Part shown: positions 822-31,608 of the stretch, piece after piece
Numbering within the stretch: position 1 is the stretch's first letter
Layout: every line of letters starts with the position of its first letter
NCBI RefSeq assembly: GCF_000014785.1
Contig: NC_008340.1
Location: forward strand, 1,920,001-1,952,000
Direction: 5' to 3'
Length of the DNA: 32,000 nucleotides
Source of the DNA: Alkalilimnicola ehrlichii MLHE-1
GTDB lineage: Bacteria > Pseudomonadota > Gammaproteobacteria > Nitrococcales > Halorhodospiraceae
The notes under the pieces: generated by a model
The model's input: the letters and a program-made list of their open reading frames with translations, nothing else
Databases searched by the model: none
What the model was told of the DNA's origin: nothing
Translations under genes and position numbers: made by a program

Positions 822-2363
<1,542 letters not shown>

Positions 2364-10457: not shown

Positions 10458-10476
10458 GCGCCGCCCGCCCCCGGGG

Positions 10477-11163
10477 TCACTCCCCGGACAGACAATCACC
10501 CATCGCGTGGGGATTGGCGGAACGGTCCATGAAGGGGCGCTGCAGCAGATAACCGCCGTAGAGCCGGACCTCCGCCCAGAGAAAGTTACGTTTGGCCTCC
10601 AGCCCCCGAAAGCGGCTGGTGGGCGTGGGCGCCGGGTGGGCGTCCAGGCCCAGATCGCGCGCCATGGCCACCGCCCGGCGCAGGTGCAGCGGGTCGCTCA
10701 CCACCAGCACCCGCCCGAGGTCGTGTTCGGCAACCACGGCGGCCGCCCCGCGCAGATTGTTCCAGGTATCGGCCGAGGCCACCTCGCAATAGGCATCCTC
10801 CGCCGCCAGGCCCCGGGCCAGCGCGTACCGGGCCGCGGCCACCGACTCGGCCAGCGGCTCGCCCGGGGCCTGGCCACCGGTGAAGATCAGCAGGTCCACC
10901 TGGCCCGCCTCATACAGGCTGAGGGCGTGGTGAATCCGTTCGCGCAGCACCGGCGAAGGGCGGCCGTTCCAGGCCGCTGCCCCGAGAATGACGGCGGCGT
11001 CGGCGGCGGTGTCGTCCTCGCGCTGGCCGAACAGCCAGATGTCCGCCGCCAGCGCCACCAGCACGGCTAACGGCAGCAGCACCAGGAGCATTGCACCCCA
11101 GAGCCCGCGTATCAGGCTACGCCCCGGCACCCGCCATCCATCCGTTGCCTCACCCCTGGACAC
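10477..11163 (-). CDS. DUF218 (YdcF/ElyC-like) domain protein
   Basis: N-terminal TM. LLIFTGGQAPGEPLAESVAAARYA and VLVVSDPLHLRRAVAMARDLG fit the DUF218 pattern. The true start could instead be an internal Met near 11091. Confidence 0.65.
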   Translation of the reverse strand: MSRGEATDGWRVPGRSLIRGLWGAMLLVLLPLAVLVALAADIWLFGQREDDTAADAAVILGAAAWNGRPSPVLRERIHHALSLYEAGQVDLLIFTGGQAPGEPLAESVAAARYALARGLAAEDAYCEVASADTWNNLRGAAAVVAEHDLGRVLVVSDPLHLRRAVAMARDLGLDAHPAPTPTSRFRGLEAKRNFLWAEVRLYGGYLLQRPFMDRSANPHAMGDCLSGE

Positions 11164-11270
11164 CCCATTATCTCATTACCCCTCCGGGCACCCGCTGCCA
11201 ATACCGTCCCCAGATTACCGCGCCACGCGCCCGGTCGCCATGGGCGCGGACCGCCGCTCCGGGGCGCAGC

Positions 11271-14890: not shown

Positions 14891-15961
14891 TCAGTGGCCG
14901 CGGGCCCGGTCGCTCATCATGATCGCCAGCCAGCGGGTCCCGGGCTGCGCCTCCAGCGCCAGCTTGGCGATCATGGTCAGGGGAATGGACAGCAGCATCC
15001 CCACCGGCCCCAACACCCAGCCCCAGGCCATCAGTGAGACCAGCACCACCAGCGGCGACAAGCCCAGGGTATGGCCCATGAAGCGCGGCTCCAGCACGCT
15101 ACCGATGACCACATTGACGGCCACGTAGAGGGCCAGGGCCAGCAGCCCCTCCATCACCCCCAGACCCAGGAACGCGATCAGGACTGCCGGGATGGCGGCG
15201 AGAATCGATCCGACCGTCGGGATGAAGTTGAGCAGGCCGGCAAGGATCCCCCAGAGCACCGGGAAATCCACCCCGATCAGCGCCAACCCCACCCCGACCA
15301 GTAGGCCGGTGGCCAGGCTGGTCGCACTCTTGATGAAGAGATAGCGATAGACCGAGCGCAGGAACCGGCGCGCCCGCACCCCGCCTCGGCGGGAGCGGGG
15401 GAAGGCCGCCCGCAGCTTCCCGGGCAGGTGGGTCTCCTCAAGCAGGAGGAACATGAAGGCCAACAGCACCAGGAAGGTGGTCGCGGTGAACTGGCCCACG
15501 CCCCCCGCCACCGCCCGCGCCAGCCCGGTCAGGTCGGCCAGCGCCGGCAGCGGCGGCCGATCCGGCAACAATTCGGCCGGGACCCCGCGCCCCGCCAACC
15601 AGGCCATGGTCTCATCGAACAGGCCGAACAGGCGCGCCTGGTAGTGCGGCGCCTGGTGCGCCATGCTCTCCACCGCCCCCTGAAGGGCCAGAAAGAGCAG
15701 GAAGAAGGCCAGCCCGACGGCAACAAACAGCGCCAACACGGCCACCGACCCCGGGACCCCGCGCCGCCGCATCCAGGTCAGCGGCGGCGCGCAGATGATG
15801 GCCAGGAAGGCCGCCAGCAACAACGGGGTCACCACCCCGGCGGCGGCCTTCAGCCCGGCCAGCAAAACCACCAGCGCTGCGCCCCCCAGCAGCCAGTGCC
15901 AGGTGGACAGCGTCTGATCCGGCGCCGCCAACGGCGGGAGCGCCTCGTTCTCAGTGTTCAT
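14891..15961 (-). CDS. AI-2E family (PerM/YhhT, UPF0118) membrane transporter
   Basis: Polytopic protein of about 356 aa. The C-terminal region NFIPTVGSILAAIPAVLIA...PRFMGHTLGLSPLVVLVSL is typical of the family. The ATG at 15961 (MNTENE...) overlaps the kinase stop by 11 nt. Confidence 0.8.
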   Translation of the reverse strand: MNTENEALPPLAAPDQTLSTWHWLLGGAALVVLLAGLKAAAGVVTPLLLAAFLAIICAPPLTWMRRRGVPGSVAVLALFVAVGLAFFLLFLALQGAVESMAHQAPHYQARLFGLFDETMAWLAGRGVPAELLPDRPPLPALADLTGLARAVAGGVGQFTATTFLVLLAFMFLLLEETHLPGKLRAAFPRSRRGGVRARRFLRSVYRYLFIKSATSLATGLLVGVGLALIGVDFPVLWGILAGLLNFIPTVGSILAAIPAVLIAFLGLGVMEGLLALALYVAVNVVIGSVLEPRFMGHTLGLSPLVVLVSLMAWGWVLGPVGMLLSIPLTMIAKLALEAQPGTRWLAIMMSDRARGH

Positions 15962-18026
15962 CCCGGGTGGCATCCAATTGCTCCAACAGCTCCCCTTCAT
16001 CCGCCATCCGCGGCTCGCTCAACAGCCAAACCCGAAAGCGGCTGCCCTCCCCCTCCTGCGACTCCACGGTGATCTGCCCGCCGTAGCGGCGGATCAGCCC
16101 GTAGCTGATGGACAGCCCCAGTCCGGTGCCCTCCCCCTCCACCCGCGTGCTGTAGAAGGGATTGAAGATATGATCCAGGGCCTGCTCAGGGATGCCCACC
16201 CCGTTGTCGCTCACGCTGATCACCACACCACGGTCATCCCAGTCGGTTGTCGCCACCCGCACCCGGCCGCTGCGGTCCGCAACCGCGTGCAGGGCGTTGA
16301 GCAGCAGGTTGACCAGCACCTGCTGCAGTTCGCGGGGGCTGATGCGTACCGTGCGGCAGGCGCCCAGCCAGGTCTCCACCGCCACCTCGCGCCGGCGGGA
16401 CAGATGCCCGATCAGATCCACCGACTGCTGCACCACGGTATTGACATCGGTCTCGCTGACAATCCCCACATAGTCCCCCGGCCGGGAGTACTGCAGCAGG
16501 TTGTCCACGATATCGCGAATCCGGTAAACCTGCTCGATGATCAGGTCCACTTCGCGCCGCACCGGCTGGACACCCTCCCCGAGTTCCTGGATAAGCACAT
16601 CCATATTGCCCAGGATCACCGCCGTCGGATTGTTGATCTCGTGCGCAACACCCGCGGTCAATTCGCCCAGGGCGGCCAGCTTTTCCGCCACCACCAACTG
16701 CTGGCGGGTCCGGCGCAGCAGCCGGATGGTGCGCTCCAGTTCCTCGTTACGGGCGCTGAGTTCGGCGGTGCGCTCCTGCACCTTCTCCTCCAGCCGATCC
16801 GCCGCCTCTTGGATCTGCTGGTTACGGGCCTGCAGCAGGTCCAGCATGCCATCGAACTCCCGGGCCAACACCCCCAGTTCGTCCCGGCTGCGGATCGGCC
16901 CCACGCGCAGGGCCTGTCCCGCCCCCGTGGCCCGGACCACGCGGGTGATCCGCTCAATGGGGCTGAAGATCGACTGCGCGCCGCTGATGGCGATACCGGT
17001 CCCGAGCACGATCAGGACCAGGAACAGCATACCCAGCGCCTGCAGGCCGTGGGTGATCTCGCTGCGAAAGGGCGCCTCGAGGAAGCCGGCGTAGAGCATC
17101 CCCACCCGTTCGCCGTGGACATCCACCACCGGCTGGTAGCTGGACATGTACCAGTCATTGACCACGAAGGCGCGGCCGATCCACACCTCCCCCTCGCGCA
17201 GGACCCTGTCCCCCACCTCCCGCGAGATGCGCGTACCCAGCGCCCGCTCACCGGGCGCGATGGGCACGTTGGTGCTGATCCGGACATCGTCCAGGAACAG
17301 GGTCACCGTGCCCGGGCGGCCATCGGGCAGGCTGCCTTCGGGATAGGCCACATCCCGGATCGCGTCCACGAAATCGAAGTTGCCGTTCAGTAACAGCCCA
17401 CCGTCGAGCAGCGCCAGGACCGCACCGTCCGGACCGCGCACCGGATAGGCCGCACGCAGGAACATGGCCCGGTTCTCGACCTCGCGATCGGTGGGCTCGG
17501 CTCGCGCGGTCTCCAGGATCGGCAACCGCAGCCGCTCGGCCAGGGCTTCCGAGTGGGCGCGCAGCCGCTCCGGGCCGTAAATCTCGATCTCGCTGACCGG
17601 CGAATCGCGTAGCGCCGCCCGCAGGATCGGATGGACGGAACGCTCCGCGGGAGCGGGCAGGGCCTGCGGGTGGAGTGCGCGCCCATCCGGGCCGCGCAGA
17701 TTGAGGAAGGTGAACCCGAAACGCGCCTTCCAGTCGCTCATCGCCTCTTCCAGCGCCCCGGTATCACCGGACTCAAGCGCCAGGCGGAACCCATGCGATT
17801 CACCGAGCCGCGCGAGCCGGTCCAGCTGATCGTCGGCCAGTCGCTGGAAGGCGTCATTGGCCACACTCAGGTCGGTGCTGACCTTCATGGTCAACTGATC
17901 GTCGCTGATCTTCTGTACCCAGTAGCCCACCAGGAAGAGTGTGGCGGGCATCAGCAACAGAACCGGGAACAACACCAGGAACAACAGCTTGTACCGGACC
18001 GACAGGGCGGGCAGTCGCCAGCGCAT
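15951..18026 (-). CDS. Membrane sensor histidine kinase with a large periplasmic sensor domain, HAMP/coiled coil, HisKA and HATPase
   Basis: Two TM segments flank about 290 aa. H-box AGVAHEINNP; N/G boxes LLLNALHA, DNGVGI, GTGLGLSISYG. The periplasmic stretch RISTNV..G.RALGT....YMSSYQPV.D..G..VGMLYAG resembles Cache-type sensors from memory, unverified. Start taken at MRWRLP (18026). Confidence 0.85.
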   Translation of the reverse strand: MRWRLPALSVRYKLLFLVLFPVLLLMPATLFLVGYWVQKISDDQLTMKVSTDLSVANDAFQRLADDQLDRLARLGESHGFRLALESGDTGALEEAMSDWKARFGFTFLNLRGPDGRALHPQALPAPAERSVHPILRAALRDSPVSEIEIYGPERLRAHSEALAERLRLPILETARAEPTDREVENRAMFLRAAYPVRGPDGAVLALLDGGLLLNGNFDFVDAIRDVAYPEGSLPDGRPGTVTLFLDDVRISTNVPIAPGERALGTRISREVGDRVLREGEVWIGRAFVVNDWYMSSYQPVVDVHGERVGMLYAGFLEAPFRSEITHGLQALGMLFLVLIVLGTGIAISGAQSIFSPIERITRVVRATGAGQALRVGPIRSRDELGVLAREFDGMLDLLQARNQQIQEAADRLEEKVQERTAELSARNEELERTIRLLRRTRQQLVVAEKLAALGELTAGVAHEINNPTAVILGNMDVLIQELGEGVQPVRREVDLIIEQVYRIRDIVDNLLQYSRPGDYVGIVSETDVNTVVQQSVDLIGHLSRRREVAVETWLGACRTVRISPRELQQVLVNLLLNALHAVADRSGRVRVATTDWDDRGVVISVSDNGVGIPEQALDHIFNPFYSTRVEGEGTGLGLSISYGLIRRYGGQITVESQEGEGSRFRVWLLSEPRMADEGELLEQLDATRDEH

Positions 18027-18043
18027 ACGTTGGCCGCCGAGAA

Positions 18044-19489
18044 TTAAAGGCGGCCCTCCTCCTGCCAACGGGCGAGTTTGCGGTCCAGCGTCTTGCGGGC
18101 CACTCCCAACCGGCGCGCGGCCTCCGACTTGTTACCGTCACAGGCATCCAGCACCCGCAGGATATGCACCCGCTCCACCTCATCCAGCGGCGTCCAGGCG
18201 TTCCCCGCTGGGGCATCCGGCAATTCCGGCCCGCGCTCGGCACTGTCGGGCACCGGGATGGCGGCACCACTGATGCAGTCTGCCGCCGGGCAGCCCAATA
18301 ACAGGGCGCGCTCAATGACATTGCGCAACTCGCGGACGTTGCCGGGCCAGGGATAGCGGTGCAACGCCCTTAGGTCATCGCGACCGAGGGCTATCGGGGG
18401 CACACCCAGCTCGGTCGCCAGGGTCTGGACCAGGTGCTCGGCCAGCGGTTGAATGTCCTCCGGACGTTCCCGCAGCGGTGGCAATTCGACGCTGACCACG
18501 TCCAGCCGGTAGTAGAGGTCCTTGCGAAACCGCCCTTCCTGGACATCCTCGGCGAGCTCCCGGTTACTGGCGGCCACCACCCGGACATCCACCGGCACCT
18601 CCCGGTCACTGCCCACCGGTCGCACCCGGTGATCCTCCAGCACGCGCAGCAGTTTGGCCTGCATGGCCAACGGCATCTCGCTGATCTCGTCGAGGAACAG
18701 GGTGCCGCCCCGGGCGTGGGAGAAGAGCCCCTCCCGGGCCTCCTGGGCCCCCGTGAACGCGCCTTTGCCATGGCCGAAGAGCTCGCTCTCCATAAGCTCC
18801 GGAGCGATGGCGCCACAGTTCACCGGCACGAAAGGGCCCTCGCGGTCGCTCCAGCGGTGCAGCGCACGGGCCGCCAACTCCTTGCCGGTGCCGGACTCGC
18901 CGCGGATCAACACCGTACTCGGTGCCACGGCCAGGCGGCGGAGCAGCTTGCAGACCTGCTGCATGACCTGGCTCTCGCCCACCAGCCCCATCTCCGGGCG
19001 GGTGGCCGCCAACTGCCGGTGCAGTAGGAAATTCTCCCGCTGCATGCTGCGCCGCTCGAAGCAGCGGTCGATGGCGGTATAGAGCTGATCCATCCGGAAG
19101 GGCTTGAGGATGAAGTCACTGGCACCGGCCCGCAGCGCGGCAATGGCGGTCTCCAGATCGGCATAGGCGGTAATGAAGATGACGTCGGTGGGGTCCCCTT
19201 GGGCCCGGACGGCCTCCACCCAATCGACCCCACTCACTCCGGGCAACCGGATGTCGGAGATGATCAGGTCGTAATGACCCTCCTCCCGCGCCGCCTCCGC
19301 CTCCTTGACATTGGCCGCCACCCGGACGTGGCGAAAATGACGCACCAGCGCCCGTTCCAGGAAGTTGCGCACCCCGGGCTCATCGTCGATAACCAGCACA
19401 GAGGCACTGGCCGGAATCCGCCGCGGTCCACTCAGATCGGGACGCTCCTGGTAATCGGCTATGCCGAGGTTGGTTCCCTGTTCAGACAT
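18044..19489 (-). CDS. Sigma-54-dependent response regulator (NtrC family): REC + AAA+ + Fis-type HTH
   Basis: REC domain (VLVIDDEP...DLIISDIRLPG), Walker A GESGTGKE, the sigma-54 contact loop GAFTGA, and the C-terminal HTH GNKSEAARRLGVARKTLDRKL. Confidence 0.9.
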   Translation of the reverse strand: MSEQGTNLGIADYQERPDLSGPRRIPASASVLVIDDEPGVRNFLERALVRHFRHVRVAANVKEAEAAREEGHYDLIISDIRLPGVSGVDWVEAVRAQGDPTDVIFITAYADLETAIAALRAGASDFILKPFRMDQLYTAIDRCFERRSMQRENFLLHRQLAATRPEMGLVGESQVMQQVCKLLRRLAVAPSTVLIRGESGTGKELAARALHRWSDREGPFVPVNCGAIAPELMESELFGHGKGAFTGAQEAREGLFSHARGGTLFLDEISEMPLAMQAKLLRVLEDHRVRPVGSDREVPVDVRVVAASNRELAEDVQEGRFRKDLYYRLDVVSVELPPLRERPEDIQPLAEHLVQTLATELGVPPIALGRDDLRALHRYPWPGNVRELRNVIERALLLGCPAADCISGAAIPVPDSAERGPELPDAPAGNAWTPLDEVERVHILRVLDACDGNKSEAARRLGVARKTLDRKLARWQEEGRL

Positions 19490-19626: not shown

Positions 19627-19650
19627 ACCTACGCTTTAGTGGGTGCCGGT

Positions 19651-20631
19651 ATGAAACTGAATCAGTTGCGCTACATCTCCGAGGTGGCCAAACGGGGGCT
19701 GAATATCTCCGCCGCAGCGGATGCCATGTACACCTCCCAGCCCGGCGTCAGCAAACAGATCCGCTTGCTGGAGGACGAGCTGGGTGTGCAGATCTTCGCC
19801 CGCAGCGGCAAGCACCTTACCCACATCACCCCGGCCGGCCGCGCCATTCTGGAATCGGCGGACCGGATCCTGGGGGAGGTCCAGAACATCCGTTCCATCG
19901 CCGCCGATTTCGTCGATGAACAGCGCGGCAGCCTCAGCATCGCCACCACCCACACTCAGGCCCGCCATGCCCTGCCGCCGGTGGTGAGCCAGTTCCGCAC
20001 CCGTTACCCCAACGTCAGCCTGCACATCCACCAGGGCACCCCCATGCAGATCGCCGAAATGGCGGCCCGTGGCCAGGTGGATTTCGCCATCGCCACCGAG
20101 GCCCTGGAGCTGTTCGAGGACCTGGTGATGCTGCCCTGCTACCGCTGGAACCGAAGCGTGATCGTACCGGAGGGGCACGAGCTGGCCGAGGTCGAACCGC
20201 TGACCCTGGAGGCCATTGCGGAGTGGCCACTGGTCACCTACGTGTTCGGCTTCACCGGCCGCTCCAAGCTGGACGAGGCCTTCGACGCCCGGGACCTGGA
20301 GCCCAACGTGGTCTTCACCGCCACCGACTCGGAGGTCATCAAGACCTACGTCCGCCTCGGACTCGGGGTCGGCATCATCGCCACCATGTCCTTCGAGCCC
20401 GAGCGCGATCAGGGCCTGTTGGCGCTGGATGCCGGCCACCTGTTCGAGGACAGCGTCACCAATATCGGCTTCCGTCGCGGCGCCTATCTACGCGGCTACA
20501 TGTACGAGTTTATGGAGTTGTTCGCCCCTCACCTCACCACCGAGGTCGTCGAACGGGCGCTGCAGACCCGCACCAAGGAGGAGCAGGAGGCCTTTATCAA
20601 CGAGCTGCAGCCACTCATCCGCCAGGTCTGA
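19651..20631 (+). CDS. cysB: LysR-type transcriptional regulator, CysB/Cbl family
   Basis: MKLNQLRYISEVAKRGLNISAAADAMYTSQPGVSKQIRLLEDELGVQIFARSGKHLT is the highly conserved CysB N-terminus. 326 aa. The ATG at 19651 is preferred over the GTG at 19639. Confidence 0.85.
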   Translation: MKLNQLRYISEVAKRGLNISAAADAMYTSQPGVSKQIRLLEDELGVQIFARSGKHLTHITPAGRAILESADRILGEVQNIRSIAADFVDEQRGSLSIATTHTQARHALPPVVSQFRTRYPNVSLHIHQGTPMQIAEMAARGQVDFAIATEALELFEDLVMLPCYRWNRSVIVPEGHELAEVEPLTLEAIAEWPLVTYVFGFTGRSKLDEAFDARDLEPNVVFTATDSEVIKTYVRLGLGVGIIATMSFEPERDQGLLALDAGHLFEDSVTNIGFRRGAYLRGYMYEFMELFAPHLTTEVVERALQTRTKEEQEAFINELQPLIRQV

Positions 20632-20698: not shown

Positions 20699-21448
20699 TC
20701 AGTGACTGGTGGGCTTTTGTGTGCTGGACCCACTTGAGCGACGCCCGCTGGCAGGCCGTGCCGCCCGCCCCGCCCCCTTGGCTTCGCTGGCCCCGCCACT
20801 CGCAGTCTGGCCTCCAGTGCCGGCCCCACCCTGGCCGGACCCCCCTTTATCGCCATCGTCACCACCCGGCTTACGGCCGGTCCCGGCCTTAGGCGCCTGC
20901 CGGGCGGTCTTGCGCGGCGCCTTCTCGGCCGCCGCCGGTGGCGGTGGCGGGGTGACGCCCTGCTCCTCGGCCAACTCCTCGACCTGGTGCATGAGCGCCT
21001 TCTGGCTCTTCATCATGGTGTCCACCATGTTGCGCCAGACATCGAAGAACTCCTCCTGGGCATCATCGCTCTGCAAGGGTAGATCGGGACGGTTCAGGTC
21101 CAGTCGCCGGGCCTGCTCGAACCACCGCTCCCAGAGTGCGGTCCGGGCCTCGAGCCAATTCTCCATCAGGTTGCAACTGGTCTCGTTCATGTCGCTCAGC
21201 GGGCGCGGGGCCTGCTCGCCTCCCATGCCGGCGTGGCGGCAGAGGCGGATCCACTCCGCCTGCACCTTAAGCGCGTCCTGGACCAGGTTTTCCATGGCAT
21301 TGAGATTCTCCTGCCAGGCCTGGTCCAGGTTCTCCACATTCTGCCCCGACCGGCTCCACTGCTGGCCGAACTCCAACCACTGCTGCCAGCTCTTCTGGGC
21401 CATCTCCATTAGGTTCGACACCATTTCCGCCGATTCGCGGTTCGCCAT
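20699..21448 (-). CDS. Hypothetical protein: Trp/Gln/Glu-rich helical N-terminal region plus a Gly/Ala/Pro/Lys/Arg-rich disordered basic tail
   Basis: 249-aa ORF with GGAGGA 7 nt before the ATG. Codon usage looks native. 9 Trp in the first ~160 aa (SWQQWLEFGQQW, LWERWF). No signal peptide or TM. I recognise no family. Confidence 0.6.
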   Translation of the reverse strand: MANRESAEMVSNLMEMAQKSWQQWLEFGQQWSRSGQNVENLDQAWQENLNAMENLVQDALKVQAEWIRLCRHAGMGGEQAPRPLSDMNETSCNLMENWLEARTALWERWFEQARRLDLNRPDLPLQSDDAQEEFFDVWRNMVDTMMKSQKALMHQVEELAEEQGVTPPPPPAAAEKAPRKTARQAPKAGTGRKPGGDDGDKGGSGQGGAGTGGQTASGGASEAKGAGRAARPASGRRSSGSSTQKPTSH

Positions 21449-21672
21449 GACATCCTCCGGCGCTACTTGCGCAATGTGTTACTCATGCTGTCCATTTCGC
21501 TACCCATCAACGGGCATTCCCCAATAGCGTCAACCATTCGTGGAGATTTTTCTTGGCTCTTGACTACGCTTAGGAGTTAACGCGACCACCCATCTTGGCG
21601 GCAGTATAGGAACGCCCCCCGGGCTTTACCAGAACCTCAGTGGGGCGATCAGCTATTAGCATAGAAGCGCTC

Positions 21673-23022
<1,350 letters not shown>

Positions 23023-23072: not shown

Positions 23073-23091
23073 CCGCACGCTTTCGGTGCGG
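23073..23091. promoter_or_regulatory. Inverted repeat CCGCAC-N7-GTGCGG, a possible NtrC-type enhancer site upstream of the nirB sigma-54 promoter
   Basis: The GCAC-N7-GTGC core spacing equals that of the NtrC consensus TGCACCA-N3-TGGTGCA. It lies about 70-80 nt upstream of the -24 element. The flanking positions do not match the consensus. Confidence 0.3.
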
Positions 23092-23153: not shown

Positions 23154-23169
23154 TGGCCGAAATCTTGCT
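23154..23169 (+). promoter_or_regulatory. Sigma-54 (-24/-12) promoter for nirBD-nasA
   Basis: TGGCCGAAATCTTGCT. GG at 23155-56 and GC at 23167-68 have the exact consensus spacing (TGGCAC-N5-TTGC). It sits in an AT-rich pocket 184 nt upstream of the nirB ATG. Confidence 0.65.
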
Positions 23170-23182
23170 TATCTATCGTTGA

Positions 23183-23268
23183 GGCGCGTGCAGCGCCCTG
23201 GGCCAATGGCGGCCCGCGGCGAACACCACAACGGGCCGAGGACGGCCCACCCCGGATAAAGGCGTCCG
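23183..23268 (+). promoter_or_regulatory. nirB leader RNA: series of alternative hairpins ending in a hexaloop hairpin that overlaps the terminator
   Basis: Hairpins: GGCGC/GCGCC (23183-97); GGGCC-AATGGC-GGCCC (23200-15); GGCCCG (23211-16) pairing with CGGGCC (23232-37); GGGCCG-AGGA-CGGCCC (23233-48); CGGAT-AAAGGC-GTCCG (23253-68). Confidence 0.5.
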
Positions 23269-23315
23269 ACATCACCCCCCATCAGGGGCTGACCGTCGGA
23301 CGCCTTTTTTGTTTT
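23258..23315 (+). terminator. Intrinsic terminator inside the nirB leader (attenuator)
   Basis: AAAGGCGTCCGAC (23258-70) pairs with GTCGGACGCCTTT (23295-307). There is an inner CCCC/GGGG stem, followed by TTTTTTGTTTT. It lies 38 nt upstream of the nirB ATG, so it is not a terminator of a preceding gene (serS is divergent). Confidence 0.75.
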
Positions 23316-23352: not shown

Positions 23353-25788
23353 ATGCAACGCGAACGATTGGTACTGGTAGGCAACGGAATGGCCGGGGTC
23401 AAGACCTTGGAGGAGTTGCTGGCGGTAGCGCCGGAGCGCTACGAGATCACCGTATTCGGCGCCGAACCCCACGGCAATTACAACCGCATCATGCTCTCCC
23501 CACTGCTCTCGGGCGAGAAGACGGTGGATGACATCATGCTCAACCGGCCCGAATGGTATGCGGAGAACGGAATCACCCTCCACACCGGCTGCCCGGTGAC
23601 CGAAATCAACCGCCGGCACCGCGAGGTGATCAGTGGCGATGGCCGGCGCACCCCTTACGATCGCCTGCTCCTGGCCACCGGCTCCAACCCCTTCATCATC
23701 CCCGTGCCTGGCAATGACCTGCCCGGGGTACTCGCCTACCGCGATATCGGCGACGTGGAGGCCATGCTCGAGGCCAGCCGCCAGCATCGCCACGCGGTGG
23801 TTATCGGCGGCGGACTGCTGGGCCTCGAGGCGGCATGGGGGCTGCACCAACAGGGTATGGCGGTCACCGTGGTGCACCTGGCCCCCCACCTCATGGAGCG
23901 TCAGCTCGATGCCCTGGCCGGAGGCATGCTGGAGCAGTCCCTGCGCGAACGCGGTGTCGAGTTCCGCCTGGAGGCGCAGACCCAGGCCCTGCTGGGCGAC
24001 GACCGCGTGGAGGCGGTCCGCTTTGCCGACGGCGAGGAGATCCCCGCCGACTTGGTGGTCATGGCGGCCGGCATCCGTCCCAACATCCACCTGGCGAAGG
24101 CGGCGGGCATCCTCTGCGAGCGTGGCATCGTGGTCAACGACACCATGCAGACCTTCGACCCGCGTATCTATGCCGTGGGCGAGTGCGTGCAGCACCGGGG
24201 CCAATGCTACGGCCTCGTTGCCCCGCTGTTCGAGCAGGCCAAAGTCTGTGCCAACCACCTGGCCGAGGCCGGCTTCGCCGCCTACGAAGGCTCGGTGACG
24301 TCCACCAAGCTCAAGGTCACCGGCGTGGATCTTTTCTCCGCCGGCGACTTTTCCGAGGCCGAAGGCACGGAGGCCATCGTCTACCAGGACCCGGCAGGCG
24401 GCATCTACAAGAAGCTGGTTCTGCAGGAGGATCGCATCCGGGGCGCCGTGCTCTACGGCGACACCAGCGACGGCGCCTGGTACTTCCAGTTGCTCAAGGA
24501 CGGCACCTCGGTCAGCGATTTCCGCGACAGTCTGCTCTTCGGCCAAGCCCACCTGGGTGACGCCGGCCACGGTGGCCAAAGCCATGCCGAGGCCATGCCC
24601 ATGGACGCCCAGGTCTGCGATTGCAACGGCGTGTGCAAAGGCGACATCGTCAACGCCATCCAGGAGCAGGGGCTTTTCAGCCTGGAGGAGGTGCAGTCGC
24701 ACACCAAGGCCTCGGCCTCCTGCGGCTCCTGCACCGGGCTGGTGGAGCAGATCCTGCAATCCACCGTGGGCGGCGGCTACGCCGAGCCCAGGGTCAAACC
24801 CCTCTGCGCCTGCACCGACCACAGCCACGACCAGGTGCGTAAGGCTATCCGCGAGCAGCACCTGACCTGTCTGCAGCAGGTCTTCGACACGTTGGAATGG
24901 AAGACCCCGGATGGCTGCGACAAGTGCCGCCCGGCGCTCAACTACTACCTGATCTCCACCTGGCCCGAGGAAGCGCAGGACGACGAGATGGCGCGCCTGG
25001 TCAACGAGCGCATGCACGCCAACATCCAGAAGGACGGCACCTACTCGGTGGTGCCCCGCATGTGGGGCGGTACCACCACCCCGGCGGAACTGCGCAAGAT
25101 CGCCGAGGTGGCGGAGCGCTACGACGTACCCACCGTGAAGGTCACCGGCGGCCAGCGGATCGATCTGCTGGGCGTGAAAAAAGAGGACCTGCCCGGCATG
25201 TGGGGCGAACTCGCGGAGGCGGGTTTTGTTTCGGGCCACGCCTACGGCAAGGCCCTGCGTACGGTGAAGACCTGCGTCGGCTCGGAATGGTGCCGCTTCG
25301 GGGTGCAGGACTCCACCAGCCTGGGCATCGCCCTGGAAAGGATGTGCTGGGGCGCGTGGACGCCCCACAAGGTCAAGCTGGCCGTCTCCGGCTGCCCGCG
25401 CAACTGCGCCGAGGCCAGCATCAAGGATCTGGGCGTGGTGGCCATCGAGTCCGGCTGGGAGATCCTGGTGGGGGGCAACGGCGGGGTGAAGGTGCGCGCC
25501 TGCGACACGCTCTGCCGGGTCGAGACCGCCGAGGAGGTGATGGAGTACGCCGCGGCCTACCTGCAGCTCTACCGCGAGACGGGCCGCTACCTGGAACGGA
25601 CCGCGCCCTGGATCGAGCGCGTCGGCCTGTCGTGGGTCCGCGAGCAGGTGGTGGACGACGACGTCAACCGCAAGCGCCTCGCCGAGCGCTTCGAACGCGC
25701 CCAGTCCATCTACCGCAAGGACCCCTGGGCCACCTTGGCCAGACAGGGCCAACGCGACCGTTTCCAGCCACTGCGCCAGGTGGGCTGA
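23353..25788 (+). CDS. nirB: Assimilatory NAD(P)H nitrite reductase large subunit
   Basis: 811 aa. FAD/NAD folds (LVGNGMAGV, VVIGGGLLGLE), BFD-like [2Fe-2S] motifs (CDCNGVCKGDI, CGSCTG), and the siroheme/[4Fe-4S] cysteine cluster (TCVGSEWCRFG ... SGCPRNCAEA). GGGAGG lies 9 nt before the ATG. Confidence 0.93.
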   Translation: MQRERLVLVGNGMAGVKTLEELLAVAPERYEITVFGAEPHGNYNRIMLSPLLSGEKTVDDIMLNRPEWYAENGITLHTGCPVTEINRRHREVISGDGRRTPYDRLLLATGSNPFIIPVPGNDLPGVLAYRDIGDVEAMLEASRQHRHAVVIGGGLLGLEAAWGLHQQGMAVTVVHLAPHLMERQLDALAGGMLEQSLRERGVEFRLEAQTQALLGDDRVEAVRFADGEEIPADLVVMAAGIRPNIHLAKAAGILCERGIVVNDTMQTFDPRIYAVGECVQHRGQCYGLVAPLFEQAKVCANHLAEAGFAAYEGSVTSTKLKVTGVDLFSAGDFSEAEGTEAIVYQDPAGGIYKKLVLQEDRIRGAVLYGDTSDGAWYFQLLKDGTSVSDFRDSLLFGQAHLGDAGHGGQSHAEAMPMDAQVCDCNGVCKGDIVNAIQEQGLFSLEEVQSHTKASASCGSCTGLVEQILQSTVGGGYAEPRVKPLCACTDHSHDQVRKAIREQHLTCLQQVFDTLEWKTPDGCDKCRPALNYYLISTWPEEAQDDEMARLVNERMHANIQKDGTYSVVPRMWGGTTTPAELRKIAEVAERYDVPTVKVTGGQRIDLLGVKKEDLPGMWGELAEAGFVSGHAYGKALRTVKTCVGSEWCRFGVQDSTSLGIALERMCWGAWTPHKVKLAVSGCPRNCAEASIKDLGVVAIESGWEILVGGNGGVKVRACDTLCRVETAEEVMEYAAAYLQLYRETGRYLERTAPWIERVGLSWVREQVVDDDVNRKRLAERFERAQSIYRKDPWATLARQGQRDRFQPLRQVG

Positions 25789-25839: not shown

Positions 25840-26238
25840 ATGAGCAACCTGGCAACAGACTATCCCGCTGAAACGACGCCGGCGCATCACGAGGACTGGC
25901 TGCCCATCGGCCACCTGGACGACATCCCCCGTCAGGGTGCCCGGGTGGTCGCCCGCCCGGAGGGCGACGATATCGCCATCTTCCGCACCGCCGACGACGC
26001 CCTGTTCGCCATCGGCAACCGCTGCCCCCATCAGGGCGGGCCGCTGGACCAGGGCCTGGTCCACGGGCACCGGGTGACCTGCCCGCTACATGGCTGGCGC
26101 ATCCAACTGGAACAGGGCGAGGCCGTCGCCCCGGATCAGGGCTGTGTGCCGCGCTTCCCGATCCGTCGGGACGACCGGGGAAACCTGTACGTCCGCCTTA
26201 CACCCGTCGACGCCGTAAAGGACGCACCGGAGACCTGA
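25840..26238 (+). CDS. nirD: Nitrite reductase small subunit (Rieske-fold NirD)
   Basis: 132 aa with CPHQGGPL and CPLHGW motifs. Located directly after nirB. Confidence 0.85.
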   Translation: MSNLATDYPAETTPAHHEDWLPIGHLDDIPRQGARVVARPEGDDIAIFRTADDALFAIGNRCPHQGGPLDQGLVHGHRVTCPLHGWRIQLEQGEAVAPDQGCVPRFPIRRDDRGNLYVRLTPVDAVKDAPET

Positions 26239-26241
26239 GCC

Positions 26242-28956
26242 ATGAATACAAGCATCCAACCCCCACGGCAGCCGGGCGAGGTGCACACCACCTGCCCCTA
26301 TTGTGGCGTCGGTTGCGGCGTGCTCGCCCGGATGGACAAGGACAACCGGGTGCATGTCCGGGGCGACCCGGAGCACCCCGCCAACTTCGGCCGCCTCTGC
26401 TCCAAGGGGGCGGCCCTGGGCGAAACCACCGGTCTCAATGGCCGGCTGTTGCACCCCCGGGTCCATGGTCAGCGCACCGACTGGGACACCGCGCTTGCGA
26501 CCGTGGCCGACGGCCTCAACCGGGTCATCCGGCGCGACGGGCCCGAGGCGGTTGGCTTCTACGTCTCGGGCCAGCTCCTCACCGAGGACTACTACGTCGC
26601 CAACAAGCTAATGAAGGGCTACATCGGCTCGGCGAACATCGACACCAATTCCAGGCTCTGCATGGCCTCTTCGGTCGCAGGCCACATTAGGGCCTTTGGT
26701 GAGGATCTGGTGCCCGGCTGTTACGAAGACCTGGAACGCGCCGACCTGGTGGTCCTCACCGGTTCCAACCTGGCCTGGTGCCACCCGGTGCTCTATCAAC
26801 GCCTGGAGGCGGCGCGGGCAAGGCGTCCCGGCATGCGAGTGGTGGTGATCGACCCGCGCGAGACTGAGACCGCCGCGCAGGCCGATCTCCACCTGCCCCT
26901 GCGCCCCGGCAGTGACGTGGCACTGTGGAACGGACTATTCCGCCGTTTGGTGGAGACCGACCAGATCCACCGCGATATCCGCCCGGAGACGGAAGCCGCC
27001 GACAGCAACCTCAAGCGAATACTGCACGAGGCAGGCGACGCCGACGCCGTCGCCAGCGCCTGCGACTTGAATCCCCGCGCCCTGCACCTGTTCTACGACT
27101 GGTTCGCCGGCACCGAACGCACGGTCAGCGTATACTCCCAGGGCGTTAACCAGTCCAGTCAGGGCACCGACAAAGTCAATGCGATCATCAACGTCCACAT
27201 CCTTACCGGACGCCTGGGGCGTCCCGGTTGCGGCCCCTTCTCGGTAACCGGTCAGCCCAATGCCATGGGCGGTCGCGAGGTGGGGGGCCTCTCTAACCAG
27301 TTGGCCGCCCATATGGGCTTTTCTCAGGGGGACCGGATTCGGGTTCAACGCTACTGGGACTCGCCCCGAATCGCCCGACAACCCGGCATGAAGGCGGTAG
27401 AGCTATTTCGTGCCGCCGCCCAAGGCCGCGTCAAAGCGCTCTGGATTATGGCCACCAACCCAGTGGTCAGCCTTCCCGACGCCGACCTGGTGAAACGCGC
27501 GCTCGCACGCTGCGAGCTGGTCGTGGTTTCCGACTGTATCGCCAACACGGATACGACCGGCTATGCCCACGTGCTTATGCCCGCTGCGGCCTGGGGTGAA
27601 AAGAGCGGTACGGTGACCAACTCAGAGCGGTGCATCTCACGCCAACGCGCCTTCCGTACGCCGGCCGGCGAGGCCCGCCCCGACTGGTGGATCATCAGTC
27701 AAGTAGCCCGCCTGATGGGGTTTGATCGCGGCTTCGCGTACGGGAGTCCGCGGGAGATATTCGACGAGCACGCCCGACTGACCGCGGTGCACAACCCTGG
27801 CCCCGGAATGGGCGGCCGGACACTTCACCTAGGGGCGCTGGCCGGAATGAACGCCAAACAGTGGGACACCCTGCAGCCTGTTCAATGGCCGTGTCCCGGC
27901 CCGGGCCTCGACACCGCCGGGCCAGGGCGGGGCACCCAGCGCCTTGCCACCAACGGAGGACTGCCCACGGAGGATGGCCACCCCCGCCTGCACCCGGTGT
28001 GCGCCGAAACACCAGGAAACACGCCAGATGCCCGATTCCCGCTTGTTCTCAACACCGGGCGGACGCGTGATCACTGGCACACGCTCACGCGCACCGGCCT
28101 GTCCGTCAGTCTGAGCACCCATCAGCCGGAACCCCGGTGCGACCTGCACCCCGAGGACGCCACACGCTTCGGCCTGGCGGACGGCCACCTGGTGCGGGTA
28201 CGCAGCGCCTGGGGCAGCGTTCTGCTGCGAGCCCGATACCAGACCGGTCAGCGCCGGGGCGAACTCTTCGTGCCCATGCACTGGAACGACTGCTATGCCG
28301 CGCAGGCGCGCATCGGCGCGGTGGCCAACCCGATCACCGATCCGATATCCGGTCAGCCAGAGTTGAAACACACCCCGGTCGCTGTGGAGGCCGTGCCCGC
28401 CGCGGCCTACGGCTTTGTGCTCAGCAGGGCGGACGACCTGCCGCCACCCGAGACGGCCTACTGGGTTCGGATCAACGGGCACGCTCATCAGCGGTTCGTG
28501 TTCGCCTCCACCGAGGCCCCTGACAGCTGGCGCGATTGGGCGGGCCGTTGGCTTGGTACGGAGGGGACCGTGGTGGAAATGGCCGACCGTGCCCGGGGCG
28601 TCTACCGATTTGCCCGGCTGGTGGACGACCGGCTGGTGGCGTGCCTGTTCATCGCCGCCGACCCCGCCGCCCTGCCCGGCTGCGACTGGCTTGCAGGGCT
28701 GCTGGACAATAACCGCCCCCTCGGCGCCGAGGAACGCCTCGCTCTGCTGGCCGGCCGCCCTGCCGGTGAAGCCGAGACCGGCGAGACCGTCTGCGCCTGC
28801 TTCGGTGTCGGCGAGAGAATCATCGAATCCGCGGTGGCCGCCGGGGCTCACGATACCGAGGCGGTGACCCGCCACTGCAAGGCGGGGGGCTACTGCGGCA
28901 GTTGCCGGCCCGCGATCAACGCCATCATCCAACGCCTGGCGCGCAGTGCCGCCTGA
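26242..28956 (+). CDS. nasA: Assimilatory nitrate reductase catalytic subunit (molybdopterin oxidoreductase) with a C-terminal BFD-like [2Fe-2S] domain
   Basis: 904 aa. N-terminal [4Fe-4S] motif TTCPYCGVGCGV...C. No Tat signal, so cytoplasmic. C-terminal CAC...CGSC (28789-28953). Starts 3 nt after nirD. Confidence 0.9.
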   Translation: MNTSIQPPRQPGEVHTTCPYCGVGCGVLARMDKDNRVHVRGDPEHPANFGRLCSKGAALGETTGLNGRLLHPRVHGQRTDWDTALATVADGLNRVIRRDGPEAVGFYVSGQLLTEDYYVANKLMKGYIGSANIDTNSRLCMASSVAGHIRAFGEDLVPGCYEDLERADLVVLTGSNLAWCHPVLYQRLEAARARRPGMRVVVIDPRETETAAQADLHLPLRPGSDVALWNGLFRRLVETDQIHRDIRPETEAADSNLKRILHEAGDADAVASACDLNPRALHLFYDWFAGTERTVSVYSQGVNQSSQGTDKVNAIINVHILTGRLGRPGCGPFSVTGQPNAMGGREVGGLSNQLAAHMGFSQGDRIRVQRYWDSPRIARQPGMKAVELFRAAAQGRVKALWIMATNPVVSLPDADLVKRALARCELVVVSDCIANTDTTGYAHVLMPAAAWGEKSGTVTNSERCISRQRAFRTPAGEARPDWWIISQVARLMGFDRGFAYGSPREIFDEHARLTAVHNPGPGMGGRTLHLGALAGMNAKQWDTLQPVQWPCPGPGLDTAGPGRGTQRLATNGGLPTEDGHPRLHPVCAETPGNTPDARFPLVLNTGRTRDHWHTLTRTGLSVSLSTHQPEPRCDLHPEDATRFGLADGHLVRVRSAWGSVLLRARYQTGQRRGELFVPMHWNDCYAAQARIGAVANPITDPISGQPELKHTPVAVEAVPAAAYGFVLSRADDLPPPETAYWVRINGHAHQRFVFASTEAPDSWRDWAGRWLGTEGTVVEMADRARGVYRFARLVDDRLVACLFIAADPAALPGCDWLAGLLDNNRPLGAEERLALLAGRPAGEAETGETVCACFGVGERIIESAVAAGAHDTEAVTRHCKAGGYCGSCRPAINAIIQRLARSAA

Positions 28957-28970
28957 GTGATCACGTCAGA

Positions 28971-28987
28971 TGCACCACTCTGGCACG
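28971..28987. promoter_or_regulatory. Possible NtrC-type enhancer site TGCACCA-CTC-TGGCACG upstream of the nrtA sigma-54 promoter
   Basis: The left half matches the NtrC consensus TGCACCA exactly; the right half matches 4 of 7. It lies about 100 nt upstream of the -24 element. A second isolated TGCACCA occurs at 29015-29021. Confidence 0.3.
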
Positions 28988-29078
28988 CGTTTATCGCAAC
29001 CCGCCATAATGCAGTGCACCATAAAATGAACCTCGGCTTGCAGGCTCTTTAAAACAACAAGTTACAGAGAAATCCTTT

Positions 29079-29094
29079 TGGCACTAATATTGCT
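29079..29094 (+). promoter_or_regulatory. Sigma-54 (-24/-12) promoter for the nrtAB-ATPase unit
   Basis: TGGCACTAATATTGCT is a perfect TGGCAC-N5-TTGC. It sits in an AT-rich region 166 nt upstream of the nrtA ATG. Confidence 0.75.
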
Positions 29095-29106
29095 TACTAG
29101 GAGATA

Positions 29107-29192
29107 GGATGCAACGGTGCATCCACCTTTCATAAGCCCGCACGGTGGGCGGCAGGTCACGAGTGCCTGCCAATGTGGATAAAGGCGTCCAC
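29107..29192 (+). promoter_or_regulatory. nrtA leader RNA hairpins, including a hexaloop hairpin that overlaps the terminator
   Basis: Hairpins: GGATGC-AACGGT-GCATCC (29107-24); GGCAGG...CCTGCC (29151-71); GTGGAT-AAAGGC-GTCCAC (29175-92). Confidence 0.5.
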
Positions 29193-29235
29193 GCACAACG
29201 GCTCAAAGAGCCATGGTGCGTGGGCGTTTTTTTTT
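29184..29235 (+). terminator. Intrinsic terminator inside the nrtA leader (attenuator)
   Basis: CCACGCAC (29189-96) pairs with GTGCGTGG (29216-23), extended by GCGT/GCGT with G-U pairs. There is an inner GGCTC-AAA-GAGCC stem, followed by a run of nine T (29227-35). It lies 24 nt upstream of the nrtA ATG. Confidence 0.75.
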
Positions 29236-29258
29236 GCGATTGATAATGAGGTTTGACA

Positions 29259-30662
29259 ATGGACAAGGACCATGAAAAGCGCCTGAACCGGCGCAGCTTT
29301 CTGAAGACCGGGGGGCTCCTCAGTGGCGCGGCACTGATGGGCATGGTAGCGCCCGGCGTGCGCACCGGCGCCTGGGCCGGGGGAAGTGACGGCCTGGAAG
29401 TGACCCGGGTAGCCCTGGGGTTCATTCCGCTGACCGATTGCGCCCCCCTGGTCATTGCCCGTGAAAAGGGCTTCTTCCAGGCGCACGGCCTCGACGTGCA
29501 GGTGTCGAAGGAAGCCTCCTGGGCCAACATCCGTGACAAGGTCTCCGTCGGTGCATTGGATGGCGGCCACATGCTGGCGGGCATGCCCATCGCCTCCACC
29601 CTCGGCGTGGGCGCCACCCGCACCCCCATGGTCACCGGCTTCAGCATGGACCTGAACGGCAATGCCATTACGGTCTCGAACGCGCTCTACGACCGCATGA
29701 TGGAGGCCGATCCCGAGGCGATGCAGGAACGCCCCATCACTGCTCGGGCCCTCAAAAAGGTCATCGACCAGGACAAGGCGGCCGGTCGGGCACCACTGAC
29801 CTTCGCAATGGTCTTCCCCGTCTCCACACACAACTACGAGCTGCGCTACTGGATGGCCGCCGCAGGCATCAACCCCGACGAAGATGTCCGGCTGGTGGTC
29901 ATCCCACCACCGCAGATGGTGGCCAACCTGCGGGCCCGGAACATGGATGGCTACTGTGTGGGTGAACCTTGGAACATGCGCGCCGTAGACATGGGGATCG
30001 GCAAGGTGCTGGTCACCAACTATGAGATCTGGAACAACAACCCGGAAAAAGTGCTCGGCCTAACGGAAGAATGGGTTGAGAAACACCCCAATACCCACAG
30101 AGCCTTGCTGCAGGCATTGATCCAGACCAATAAGTGGATGGACGAGCCCGAGAACCGCGAGGAGGTCGTGGACATCATCTCCCGCCGGGCCTACGTCAAC
30201 GCACCACCCCATGTGGTGGGCATGTCTATGAAGGGCACACTGCAGTTCCAGCGGGACGAGAAGCCGCGCCCGTTCCCGGATTTCAACGTCTTCCACCGAT
30301 ATGCCGCCACCTACCCGTGGCGCTCCCACGCCGTCTGGTTCCTGACCCAGATGGTGCGTTGGGGTCAGCTACGCGAGCCGGAGGATCTGCTCAAAGTCGC
30401 CGAGCGGGTCTACCGGCCCGACCTTTATCGTGAGGCCGCCCGTGCCGTGGGCGAGCCCTACCCCACCATCGATTACAAAAGCGAAGGCACGCGGGATAAG
30501 CCTTGGACCCTCCAGGAGGCCAGCCACCCCATTGAGATGGGGCCGGACCGCTTCCTCGATGGCCGCACTTTCGACCCCCGGGATGTCATGGCTTACCTGG
30601 AAGGCTTTGATGTGCACTCCCGGGCCCTGAGCCTGCCGCAACTGGCCGAATTGAACGGCTGA
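29259..30662 (+). CDS. nrtA: Nitrate/nitrite ABC transporter periplasmic substrate-binding protein (NrtA/CmpA/NasF type)
   Basis: Tat-type signal LNRRSFLKTGGLLSGAALMG. The conserved GFIPLTDCAPLVIAREKGFF and YCVGEPWN motifs are present. ATG at 29259 follows GAGG. Confidence 0.88.
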   Translation: MDKDHEKRLNRRSFLKTGGLLSGAALMGMVAPGVRTGAWAGGSDGLEVTRVALGFIPLTDCAPLVIAREKGFFQAHGLDVQVSKEASWANIRDKVSVGALDGGHMLAGMPIASTLGVGATRTPMVTGFSMDLNGNAITVSNALYDRMMEADPEAMQERPITARALKKVIDQDKAAGRAPLTFAMVFPVSTHNYELRYWMAAAGINPDEDVRLVVIPPPQMVANLRARNMDGYCVGEPWNMRAVDMGIGKVLVTNYEIWNNNPEKVLGLTEEWVEKHPNTHRALLQALIQTNKWMDEPENREEVVDIISRRAYVNAPPHVVGMSMKGTLQFQRDEKPRPFPDFNVFHRYAATYPWRSHAVWFLTQMVRWGQLREPEDLLKVAERVYRPDLYREAARAVGEPYPTIDYKSEGTRDKPWTLQEASHPIEMGPDRFLDGRTFDPRDVMAYLEGFDVHSRALSLPQLAELNG

Positions 30663-30672
30663 GGAGACGCTC

Positions 30673-31608
30673 ATGGTTGCCAACACTTACGATATCAGCG
30701 CCTCTACCGCCGACAGGCGGTCTGAGGAGGCCACCACCAGGCCTTTGGCCCGTTCCGCCGCTGCCGACACACGGCGTCCCACCGCGGACGTAGCACCCGT
30801 AGAATGCCGGCGCTGGGAACAGATGGTCGCAAGCCTGCAAACCGTTACCCGGTTGGTCACGCTACCCACCCTGACCTTCCTGATCGTACTCGCGGTTTGG
30901 GCAACGACCCAGAGCACCGTTGCGCCGGACCTGCCCACCGTGGGCGAAACGTGGCAGCGGGCCGTCACGCTTTTCTCCGACCCCTTTTACGACTATGGCC
31001 CCAACGACATGGGCATCGGCTGGCAGGTGACCTACTCGCTGGGCCGGGTGCTCGGCGGGTTCTTCCTGGCGTTGCTCGTGGGCATTCCAGTCGGGCTGAT
31101 GATGGGCACCAGCGAAGTCTGTCGGCGCGCCTGGGGGCCACTGATCCAGATCCTGCGCCCGGTCAGCCCGCTGGCCTGGCTGCCCATCGGCCTGCTGCTC
31201 TTCCGGGCGGTGGACCCCTCGGCCATCTTTGTGATCTTCATCACCAGCATATGGCCCATCATCCTGAACACCTCCGCGGGCGTACAGGCGATTCCACGGG
31301 ACTACATGAATGTCTCCCGCGTCCTTCAGTTGAACCGCCTCGAGATCACCCGAAAAATCCTGCTGCCGGCGGCACTGCCTCACATGCTCACCGGCATGCG
31401 CCTCTCCCTAGGTATCGCCTGGATGGTCATTGTGGCCGCGGAGATGCTCACCGGTGGGATCGGTATCGGCTTTTTCGTCTGGGACGAGTGGAACAACCTC
31501 AATGTCGCCTCGATTCTCGTGGCCATTCTGGTCATCGGTCTCGTGGGCATTGCCCTGGATACCGTCATGAATCTGGTCCAGCGCCGCCTGGACTACACCC
31601 AGCGCTGA
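30673..31608 (+). CDS. nrtB: Nitrate/nitrite ABC transporter permease (NrtB/NasE type)
   Basis: Polytopic BPD-type permease, with the EAA-like loop region ...VLQLNRLEITRKILLPAALPHM. GAGGAG lies 6 nt before the ATG at 30673. There is a ~50-aa hydrophilic N-terminal extension. Confidence 0.85.
   Translation: MVANTYDISASTADRRSEEATTRPLARSAAADTRRPTADVAPVECRRWEQMVASLQTVTRLVTLPTLTFLIVLAVWATTQSTVAPDLPTVGETWQRAVTLFSDPFYDYGPNDMGIGWQVTYSLGRVLGGFFLALLVGIPVGLMMGTSEVCRRAWGPLIQILRPVSPLAWLPIGLLLFRAVDPSAIFVIFITSIWPIILNTSAGVQAIPRDYMNVSRVLQLNRLEITRKILLPAALPHMLTGMRLSLGIAWMVIVAAEMLTGGIGIGFFVWDEWNNLNVASILVAILVIGLVGIALDTVMNLVQRRLDYTQR

Follow-up and report, generated by a model that had tools for sequence, protein, structure and literature searches.

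Paired ANTAR-type attenuation leaders predicted before nirBD-nasA and nrtABC in the nitrate-assimilation locus of Alkalilimnicola ehrlichii MLHE-1

The soda-lake bacterium Alkalilimnicola ehrlichii MLHE-1 carries its nitrate-assimilation genes as two successive plus-strand units, nirBD-nasA and nrtABC. We analyzed these units within a 32,000-nt stretch of the genome (contig NC_008340.1, positions 1,920,001 to 1,952,000; hereafter the window, G+C 68%), with attention to the DNA directly before nrtA, which encodes the periplasmic nitrate-binding protein of an ABC transporter (ABI57049/WP_011629443). As judged from sequence, positions 29079-29258 very probably constitute a promoter followed by a leader that belongs to the NasR/NasT (ANTAR) class and acts by transcription attenuation, and a leader of the same design lies ~6 kb upstream, before nirB. 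The parts of the two leaders, recognized by sequence and folding, and the genes that they precede, assigned by Pfam, are as follows.

23154-23169, plus strand: sigma-54-type promoter of the nirBD-nasA unit, TGGCCG-N5-TTGCT
23199-23216, plus strand: hairpin P1 of the nirB leader, UGGGCC-AAUGGC-GGCCCG, 6 bp, C:G closing pair, -10.9 kcal/mol
23253-23268, plus strand: hairpin P2 of the nirB leader, CGGAU-AAAGGC-GUCCG, 5 bp, U.G closing pair, -4.4 kcal/mol
23258-23310, plus strand: intrinsic terminator of the nirB leader, -33.0 kcal/mol, T-run at 23305-23310
23353-25788, plus strand: nirB
25840-26238, plus strand: nirD
26242-28956, plus strand: nasA
29079-29094, plus strand: sigma-54-type promoter of the nrtA unit, TGGCAC-N5-TTGCT (TGGCAC-TAATA-TTGC at 29079-29093)
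29107-29124, plus strand: hairpin P1 of the nrtA leader, GGAUGC-AACGGU-GCAUCC, 6-bp stem, hexaloop AACGGU, C:G closing pair, -9.1 kcal/mol
29136-29150 and 29151-29171, plus strand: two linker hairpins of the nrtA leader
29174-29193, plus strand: hairpin P2 of the nrtA leader, core GGAU-AAAGGC-GUCC (29177-29190), 7 bp, U.G closing pair, -7.8 kcal/mol
29181-29235, plus strand: intrinsic terminator of the nrtA leader, -33.7 kcal/mol
29259-30662, plus strand: nrtA (NMT1_2, E = 1.6e-98)
30673-31608, plus strand: nrtB (BPD_transp_1)
from 31605, plus strand: nrtC (ABC_tran), of which only the start lies in the window

Each unit has its own sigma-54-type promoter. Over both strands of the window (64 kb), the pattern TGGC-N7-TTGCW matched only twice, at 23154 and at 29079, and the second match is the promoter that an initial annotation of this DNA had proposed for nrtA. 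Transcription of the nrtA unit is predicted to start at ~29105. Sites resembling those bound by NtrC lie farther upstream: a dyad with perfect GCAC-N7-GTGC symmetry, CGCACGCTTTCGGTGCG, at 23074-23090, ~80 nt 5' of the nirB promoter, and TGCACCACTCTGGCACG at 28971-28987, ~105 nt 5' of the nrtA promoter.

Downstream of each promoter lie exactly two hairpins whose six-base loop has A at the first and G at the fourth position (A1/G4). This architecture was described by Ramesh 2012 for the RNA targets of ANTAR proteins, in which the second of two A1/G4 hexaloop hairpins overlaps a terminator that is blocked when the protein binds (PMC3369931). Both leaders display every element of that definition: A1/G4 hexaloops on stems that are 3 bp or longer, and a terminator overlapping P2. 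The motif has been confirmed by the NasR consensus obtained through SELEX, as well as by NasR binding to nasF P1P2 RNA (PMC7496416). NasT likewise binds NalA, the two-hairpin leader found before nirBD in Pseudomonas putida, where A1 and G4 are essential (PMC10783516), and Paracoccus NasT binds the nasA leader (PMC3795266). A descriptor that asked for a pair of A1/G4 hexaloop hairpins, separated by at most 70 nt and with a T-run after them, matched only these two leaders in both strands of the window (0.01 matches in shuffled sequence). The upstream hexaloop hairpin before nrtA had been drawn correctly in the initial annotation; for the nirB leader, only the hairpin formed by a shared 14-mer had been cited, and a proper P1 is present there as well.

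P2 and the terminator are mutually exclusive in both leaders, as had been proposed, with overlaps at 29181-29193 (nrtA) and 23258-23268 (nirB). In each case the 5' arm of the terminator is made up of the 3' half of the P2 loop and the 3' strand of P2 (AAAGGCGUCC...). The nrtA terminator, with the nine T noted previously and a stem that we trace from 29181, consists of a 16-bp outer stem (29181-29196/29216-29231), an internal loop, a 5-bp apical stem and the T tract at 29227-29235. Since the terminators are far more stable than the P2 hairpins they overlap, the terminator is expected to be the default fold, and P2 would win only if stabilized.

The 14-mer GGATAAAGGCGTCC is exactly repeated at 23254-23267 and 29177-29190 (chance expectation 0.13 at up to two mismatches). 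Its distance from the -12 element is 85 nt in the nirB leader, as annotated, and 83 nt in the nrtA leader, where 82 had been given. The 4-bp P2 helix GGAU/GUCC that it forms gains further U:A, G:C and U.G pairs in the nrtA leader and a C:G pair in the nirB leader. The C:G versus U:A plus G:C difference in flanking pairs is therefore present as described, but as covariation it is weak: the position pairs in just 7 of 27 orthologous leaders and falls inside the terminator arm. The 14-mer also fails as a genome-specific signature. It is the family-wide P2/terminator consensus GGACAAAGGCGUCC with a single C-to-U change, and no exact copy occurs in 80 related loci, where the conserved form has C at the position of the window's U. 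Recent duplication of the nirB leader into the nrtA leader was considered and rejected, as no word common to both leaders exceeds 8 nt once the promoter, P2 and the terminator tract are set aside. The identity of the 14-mer is instead explained by a double constraint, as protein-binding loop and as terminator arm, that acts across the family.

The linkers between P1 and P2, 49 nt in the nrtA leader and 36 nt in the nirB leader, both fold into hairpins of their own. The nrtA linker fold reaches -22.1 kcal/mol (z = -3.0 against shuffles; z = -2.1 for the nirB linker), and its two hairpins, which occupy most of the linker, may form a spacer that brings P1 close to P2. Separately, the minimum-energy fold of the nirB leader lacks the hexaloop hairpin at P1: its strands pair downstream (23200-23205/23244-23249 and 23210-23216/23232-23238), and a separate 5' hairpin forms at 23183-23197. 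Such pairing may add a further layer by which P1 is concealed in the free RNA.

We next compared the leaders with those of relatives. A one-genome-per-species scan with NrtA gave 80 loci, the closest being from a metagenome-assembled genome (MAG) of the Aquisalimonadaceae (77% identity) and from Thioalkalivibrio (74%). In ~50 of the 80 loci, which span Alpha-, Beta- and Gammaproteobacteria, the motif stands 5' of nrtA, of nirB or of a gene for a porin. In ~30 of the 80, the same layout is found at the same distance 5' of nrtA: a sigma-54 promoter, a P1 with variable stem and AAHGGC loop, a P2 of the form GGAC-AAHGGC-GUCC, and a terminator 3' arm GGACGCC-UUUUUU. Its carriers include Kordiimonas and Emcibacter (Alphaproteobacteria), Thiobacillus, Gallionellaceae, Methylophilaceae and Azoarcus (Betaproteobacteria), and Thioalkalivibrio and Thioploca (Gammaproteobacteria), and in many of these orthologous leaders the same promoter element stands 25-30 nt 5' of P1.

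An alignment of 27 leaders from other genomes, with the window sequences left out, shows that the helices themselves are conserved. P1 is paired in 100% of alignment cells and four of its five pairs show changes on both sides, while P2 keeps its 4-bp core with some G:C to A:U exchanges; because the orthologues were chosen by hairpin descriptor, the pairing percentage is partly circular, and support rests mainly on stem variation, strand bias and gene context. The covariation score is 0.60, against 0.18 for shuffles and at most 0.125 for slid controls. Conservation and covariation in orthologous leaders, which the initial annotation had anticipated, are thus found, and the real covariation is that of P1 together with the outer pairs in the 4-bp core of P2.

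A covariance model built from this alignment and run over the window with filters off provides an independent test, as it was trained without window sequences. It returned two full-length matches, at 23195-23270 in the nirB leader (24.9 bits, E = 5e-5) and at 29103-29193 in the nrtA leader (20.3 bits, E = 7e-4); the next best match in the window scored 8.5 bits (E = 0.47). The model thus singles out exactly these two leaders. Across 81 sources (1.43 Mb), the model gave 63 matches at E <= 0.1, of which 62 are on the nrtA strand, and further loci yielded 10 more, including one in the nasR-nrtA intergenic region of Thioalkalivibrio paradoxus. The matches precede nrtA-like genes, nirB and genes for a porin of the Alginate_exp type. 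Family loops, AAHGGY in this nitrate subclass, are accompanied by P1-P2 linkers of 2 to ~68 nt. Several loci have three consecutive A1/G4 hexaloop hairpins, the additional one perhaps a second candidate for P1 (L023/L024, 8557-8650; L028, 6114-6212; L043, 9812-9880; L046, 6385-6464; L049, 6491-6575).

Neither the window nor any of 7 orthologous loci has a match that reaches the gathering score of an Rfam family, and no riboswitch matched. Under permissive settings, noise aside, only narK RNA (RF03032) gave matches, weak ones on the plus strand at 29080-29141 and 23155-23268 (13.8 and 15.8 bits; its gathering score is 43.2), and this motif may be a related nitrate-gene leader.

Genes for ANTAR proteins accompany the leader in relatives. 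An ANTAR gene lies within 10 kb in 58 of the 80 related loci, mostly directly 5' of the leader. Clustering of open reading frames (ORFs) identified a family of 190-200 aa in 52 loci, usually directly 5' of the nrtA leader, whose Pfam receiver and ANTAR domains mark it as NasT. Genes with NIT and ANTAR domains, the NasR type, were found in L001, L002, L005, L034 and Thioalkalivibrio paradoxus. It is a gene of this type, in place of nasT, that holds the position before the leader in Thioalkalivibrio ALE10 and ALJ24 and in MAGs of a Methylophilaceae member and of Azoarcus. Two assemblies filed as A. ehrlichii (L085/L086; GCA_003399715.1, GCA_003399765.1) have nasT, nasS and a NasR-type gene side by side at 8077-11293, and thus two ANTAR regulators of different architecture in one locus. 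This trio sits between nrtABC and a major facilitator superfamily transporter gene with nirB-nirD-nasA, both flanks being on the opposite strand. The nrtA leader there has a structured linker of ~85 nt and was missed by the covariance model.

Sequence elements, competing structures, conservation with covariation, and the association with ANTAR genes in relatives were all computed here; which protein binds, what the inducer is and that NtrC is needed are what we infer. Taken together, we consider it very likely that both leaders are nitrate/nitrite-responsive ANTAR attenuators behind sigma-54 promoters. In this model, sigma-54 polymerase would start at ~29105, probably with an NtrC-type activator under nitrogen limitation. 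By default, the nascent nrtA leader would fold into its -34 kcal/mol terminator and transcription would stop at the nine-U tract (29227-29235). With nitrate or nitrite present, an active dimeric ANTAR protein, either a NasR-type NIT-ANTAR protein or NasT freed from NasS, would bind the hexaloops of P1 and P2. Stabilization of P2 would then tie up 29181-29193, the 5' arm of the terminator, and allow read-through into nrtABC. The nirBD-nasA leader (23154-23310) would work likewise, and with the same mechanism in both leaders, transport and reduction would answer to the same regulator. A common ANTAR antiterminator for both leaders, as first suggested by the initial annotation, is thus favored by the independent model, by positional conservation and by ANTAR linkage in relatives.

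Some observations weigh against this model or favor a different one. Beyond the partial circularity of the pairing percentage, the NtrC-like sites are not enriched in the window (38 matches, 31 expected from shuffles), and the window linkers, at 36 and 49 nt, greatly exceed the 5-12 nt permitted by EutV (PMC3369931), although linkers in the family run from 2 to ~68 nt. A regulator also escaped the searches: neither tblastn with six NasT queries and one NasR query nor an ANTAR hidden Markov model run against the six-frame translation (best E = 2.5) found an ANTAR domain in the window, and no MLHE-1 protein is among the best 120 matches of database searches with NasR and NasT queries from relatives, lists that end at ~42-60% identity, so that an MLHE-1 regulator was not found but its absence is not implied. 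Candidate regulator matches proved to belong to Thioalkalivibrio paradoxus, to other strains that are filed as A. ehrlichii and carry a different locus, or to an unrelated sample; a metagenome scan returned nothing closer than 70% identity, and neither the Ramesh 2012 supplements nor the other literature searched mentions A. ehrlichii and ANTAR together. Finally, the loop-closing pair of P2 is unusual. C:G, which NasR selects in SELEX (PMC7496416) and which is not part of the 2012 definition, closes both P1 loops and 57 of the 63 P2 loops of the family, while both P2 loops of the window are closed by U.G. With no linked regulator gene, no close NasR or NasT orthologue retrieved and the same U.G departure in both P2 hairpins, the MLHE-1 leaders could be 'orphan' ANTAR targets, read by an unlinked divergent ANTAR protein or by another RNA-binding protein with altered loop-closing-pair specificity, which we regard as unlikely. 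The same absences and the U.G pair could be taken further, to mean that the motif has been kept in a genome from which NasR/NasT has disappeared or in which it never existed, and that control lies with some other RNA-binding protein, with a riboswitch for a small molecule or with a leader peptide. This is quite improbable given that all defining features of ANTAR targets are kept, that both leaders fit a model trained on leaders adjoining ANTAR genes, and that the U.G variant also occurs in Skermanella-type leaders adjoining nasT. Moreover, Rfam offers no riboswitch here, and if no antiterminator relieved them, two terminators of -33 kcal/mol would shut down the entire pathway.

Other alternatives concern what the terminators do. 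The structure at 29181-29235 might merely be the 3' terminator of nirBD-nasA, with the nrtABC promoter elsewhere and constitutive or controlled only by NtrC, and the small hairpins incidental. We found no plus-strand intrinsic terminator between the nasA stop (28956) and the nrtA promoter (28957-29078), nor any other up to nrtA, so the nrtA leader probably does also end, or conditionally pass, nirBD-nasA transcripts. As a complete account, though, this is highly improbable: the terminator lies 3' of the sigma-54 promoter at 29079-29094 and must act on transcripts from there, the covariance-model match covers P1 to P2 and so extends beyond the terminator, and in many genomes with no reductase operon 5' of it, the P1-P2-terminator unit is flanked by an ANTAR gene on one side and by nrtA on the other. 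What the missing terminator does affect is the independence of the two attenuated units proposed by the initial annotation. There are indeed two leaders, but the nirBD-nasA and nrt units may not be fully independent. It is scarcely credible, by contrast, that the terminated leaders act mainly in trans as small RNAs, as in the first description of NalA in Pseudomonas. Terminated leaders of ~125-130 nt would build up as stable structured RNAs, and the Pseudomonas nirB leader does bear an RNA name of its own; yet NalA, where tested, is a cis-acting NasT-dependent attenuator (PMC10783516), and conservation is confined to the protein-binding loops and the terminator, leaving no candidate seed region.

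Two leaders per locus is a minority arrangement, as the initial annotation had supposed, but one that recurs: L009 and L060 have leader-nirB ... leader-nrtA as in the window, L032 has three leaders, and L034, L044 and L004 are further cases. Multi-unit NasT regulons have also been published (PMC4724949). The closest relatives, Thioalkalivibrio, have a single leader in the order nasR-leader-nrtABC-nirBD-nasA. That the regulator gene is linked to neither leader is slightly unusual, as are the U.G pair of P2, a gene order unlike that of the closest relatives and the lack of a matching Rfam family, although all of this is still inside the known class.

The leader and its terminator also occur 5' of genes for a 400-450 aa Alginate_exp (PF13372) outer-membrane protein (L008, 8621-8663; L016, 8552-8618; L023, 8557-8629; L064, 5674-5740; also L054, L056 and L062), in Parvibaculum/Tepidicaulis-like Alphaproteobacteria and some Gammaproteobacteria. 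This position suggests that the protein is a nitrate/nitrite-inducible porin in the NasT regulon. To our knowledge, although no literature search was aimed at this point, alginate-export-type porins have not been linked to nitrate uptake so far.

The remainder of the window, upstream of the nirB leader, contains the following features, again assigned by Pfam.

168-758: napC (NapC/NirT tetrahaem cytochrome), which opens the window
879-2363: cysG, sirohaem synthase
from cysG up to the kinase gene: rhodanese, soxY, ccmABCE and further ccm genes, uvrD-like helicase
15951-18068, minus strand: sCache histidine kinase
18044-19489, minus strand: NtrC-family regulator
19639-20631: LysR regulator
21673-22947, minus strand: serS (SerS, ABI57045)

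The product of cysG supplies sirohaem, the cofactor of NirB, from a gene 20 kb away from the nir genes. In the ~1 kb between the LysR gene and serS (20699-21640), both strands contain long ORFs, of 249 and 272 aa, and Pfam has a match for neither.

For A. ehrlichii MLHE-1, this work amounts to an annotation rather than a discovery: a regulatory mechanism is assigned to nitrate-assimilation genes, with the prediction that nitrate uptake and reduction are co-induced by one RNA-binding regulator, above sigma-54 nitrogen control. The wider point is that the sigma-54/two-hairpin leader represents a large proteobacterial RNA family that is not curated in Rfam, with a regulon that would include an alginate-export-type porin. 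The ~60 leaders, the working covariance model and the consensus (a variable P1 with AAHGGC loop, then GGACAAHGGCGUCC) could seed an Rfam family for NasR/NasT targets, and the leader set could be used to map nitrate regulons across Proteobacteria, including candidate nitrate-inducible porins.

The mechanism is already known from leaders of the nasF and NalA type, and those of the window are ordinary members of the class. The nrtA leader corresponds to that of Klebsiella oxytoca nasF, controlled by the NIT-ANTAR protein NasR. Both lie 5' of the gene for a periplasmic nitrate-binding protein and both have two A1/G4 hexaloop hairpins with P2 overlapping an intrinsic terminator. As nasF encodes an NrtA-type binding protein (nasF = nrtA), the founding example of the mechanism has its counterpart in the nrtA leader. 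The likeness reportedly extends to the promoter, that of Klebsiella nasF being sigma-54/NtrC-dependent according to Lin and Stewart. Klebsiella, however, has one leader for a single nasFEDCBA operon, whereas in the window the reductase genes come first with a leader of their own, P2 is closed by U.G, the linker is long and structured, and the regulator gene is not adjacent.

The nirB leader has its counterpart in NalA, the NasS/NasT-controlled leader of nirBD in P. aeruginosa and P. putida. NalA also has two hexaloop hairpins, in which A1 and G4 are essential, and a Rho-independent terminator, with NasT-dependent read-through into nirBD. Sequence homology between NalA and the window leader is too low for any Rfam family match, and in Pseudomonas, unlike the window, the nasST genes lie in the nitrate-assimilation region. 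With the general ANTAR motif, represented by the targets of EutV, AmiR and NasR, the window leaders share stems of at least 3 bp, A1/G4 hexaloops, a variable linker and a terminator over P2, although the nitrate subclass allows far less variation in its loops (AAHGGY) and the linkers go beyond the tolerance of EutV. The NasS-NasT regulon of Bradyrhizobium resembles the proposed arrangement in that one ANTAR regulator serves several separate nitrate/nitrite units (PMC4724949), some of them far from the regulator gene; there, the targets include denitrification genes and the units lie at distant loci, whereas in the window two adjacent units would be served.

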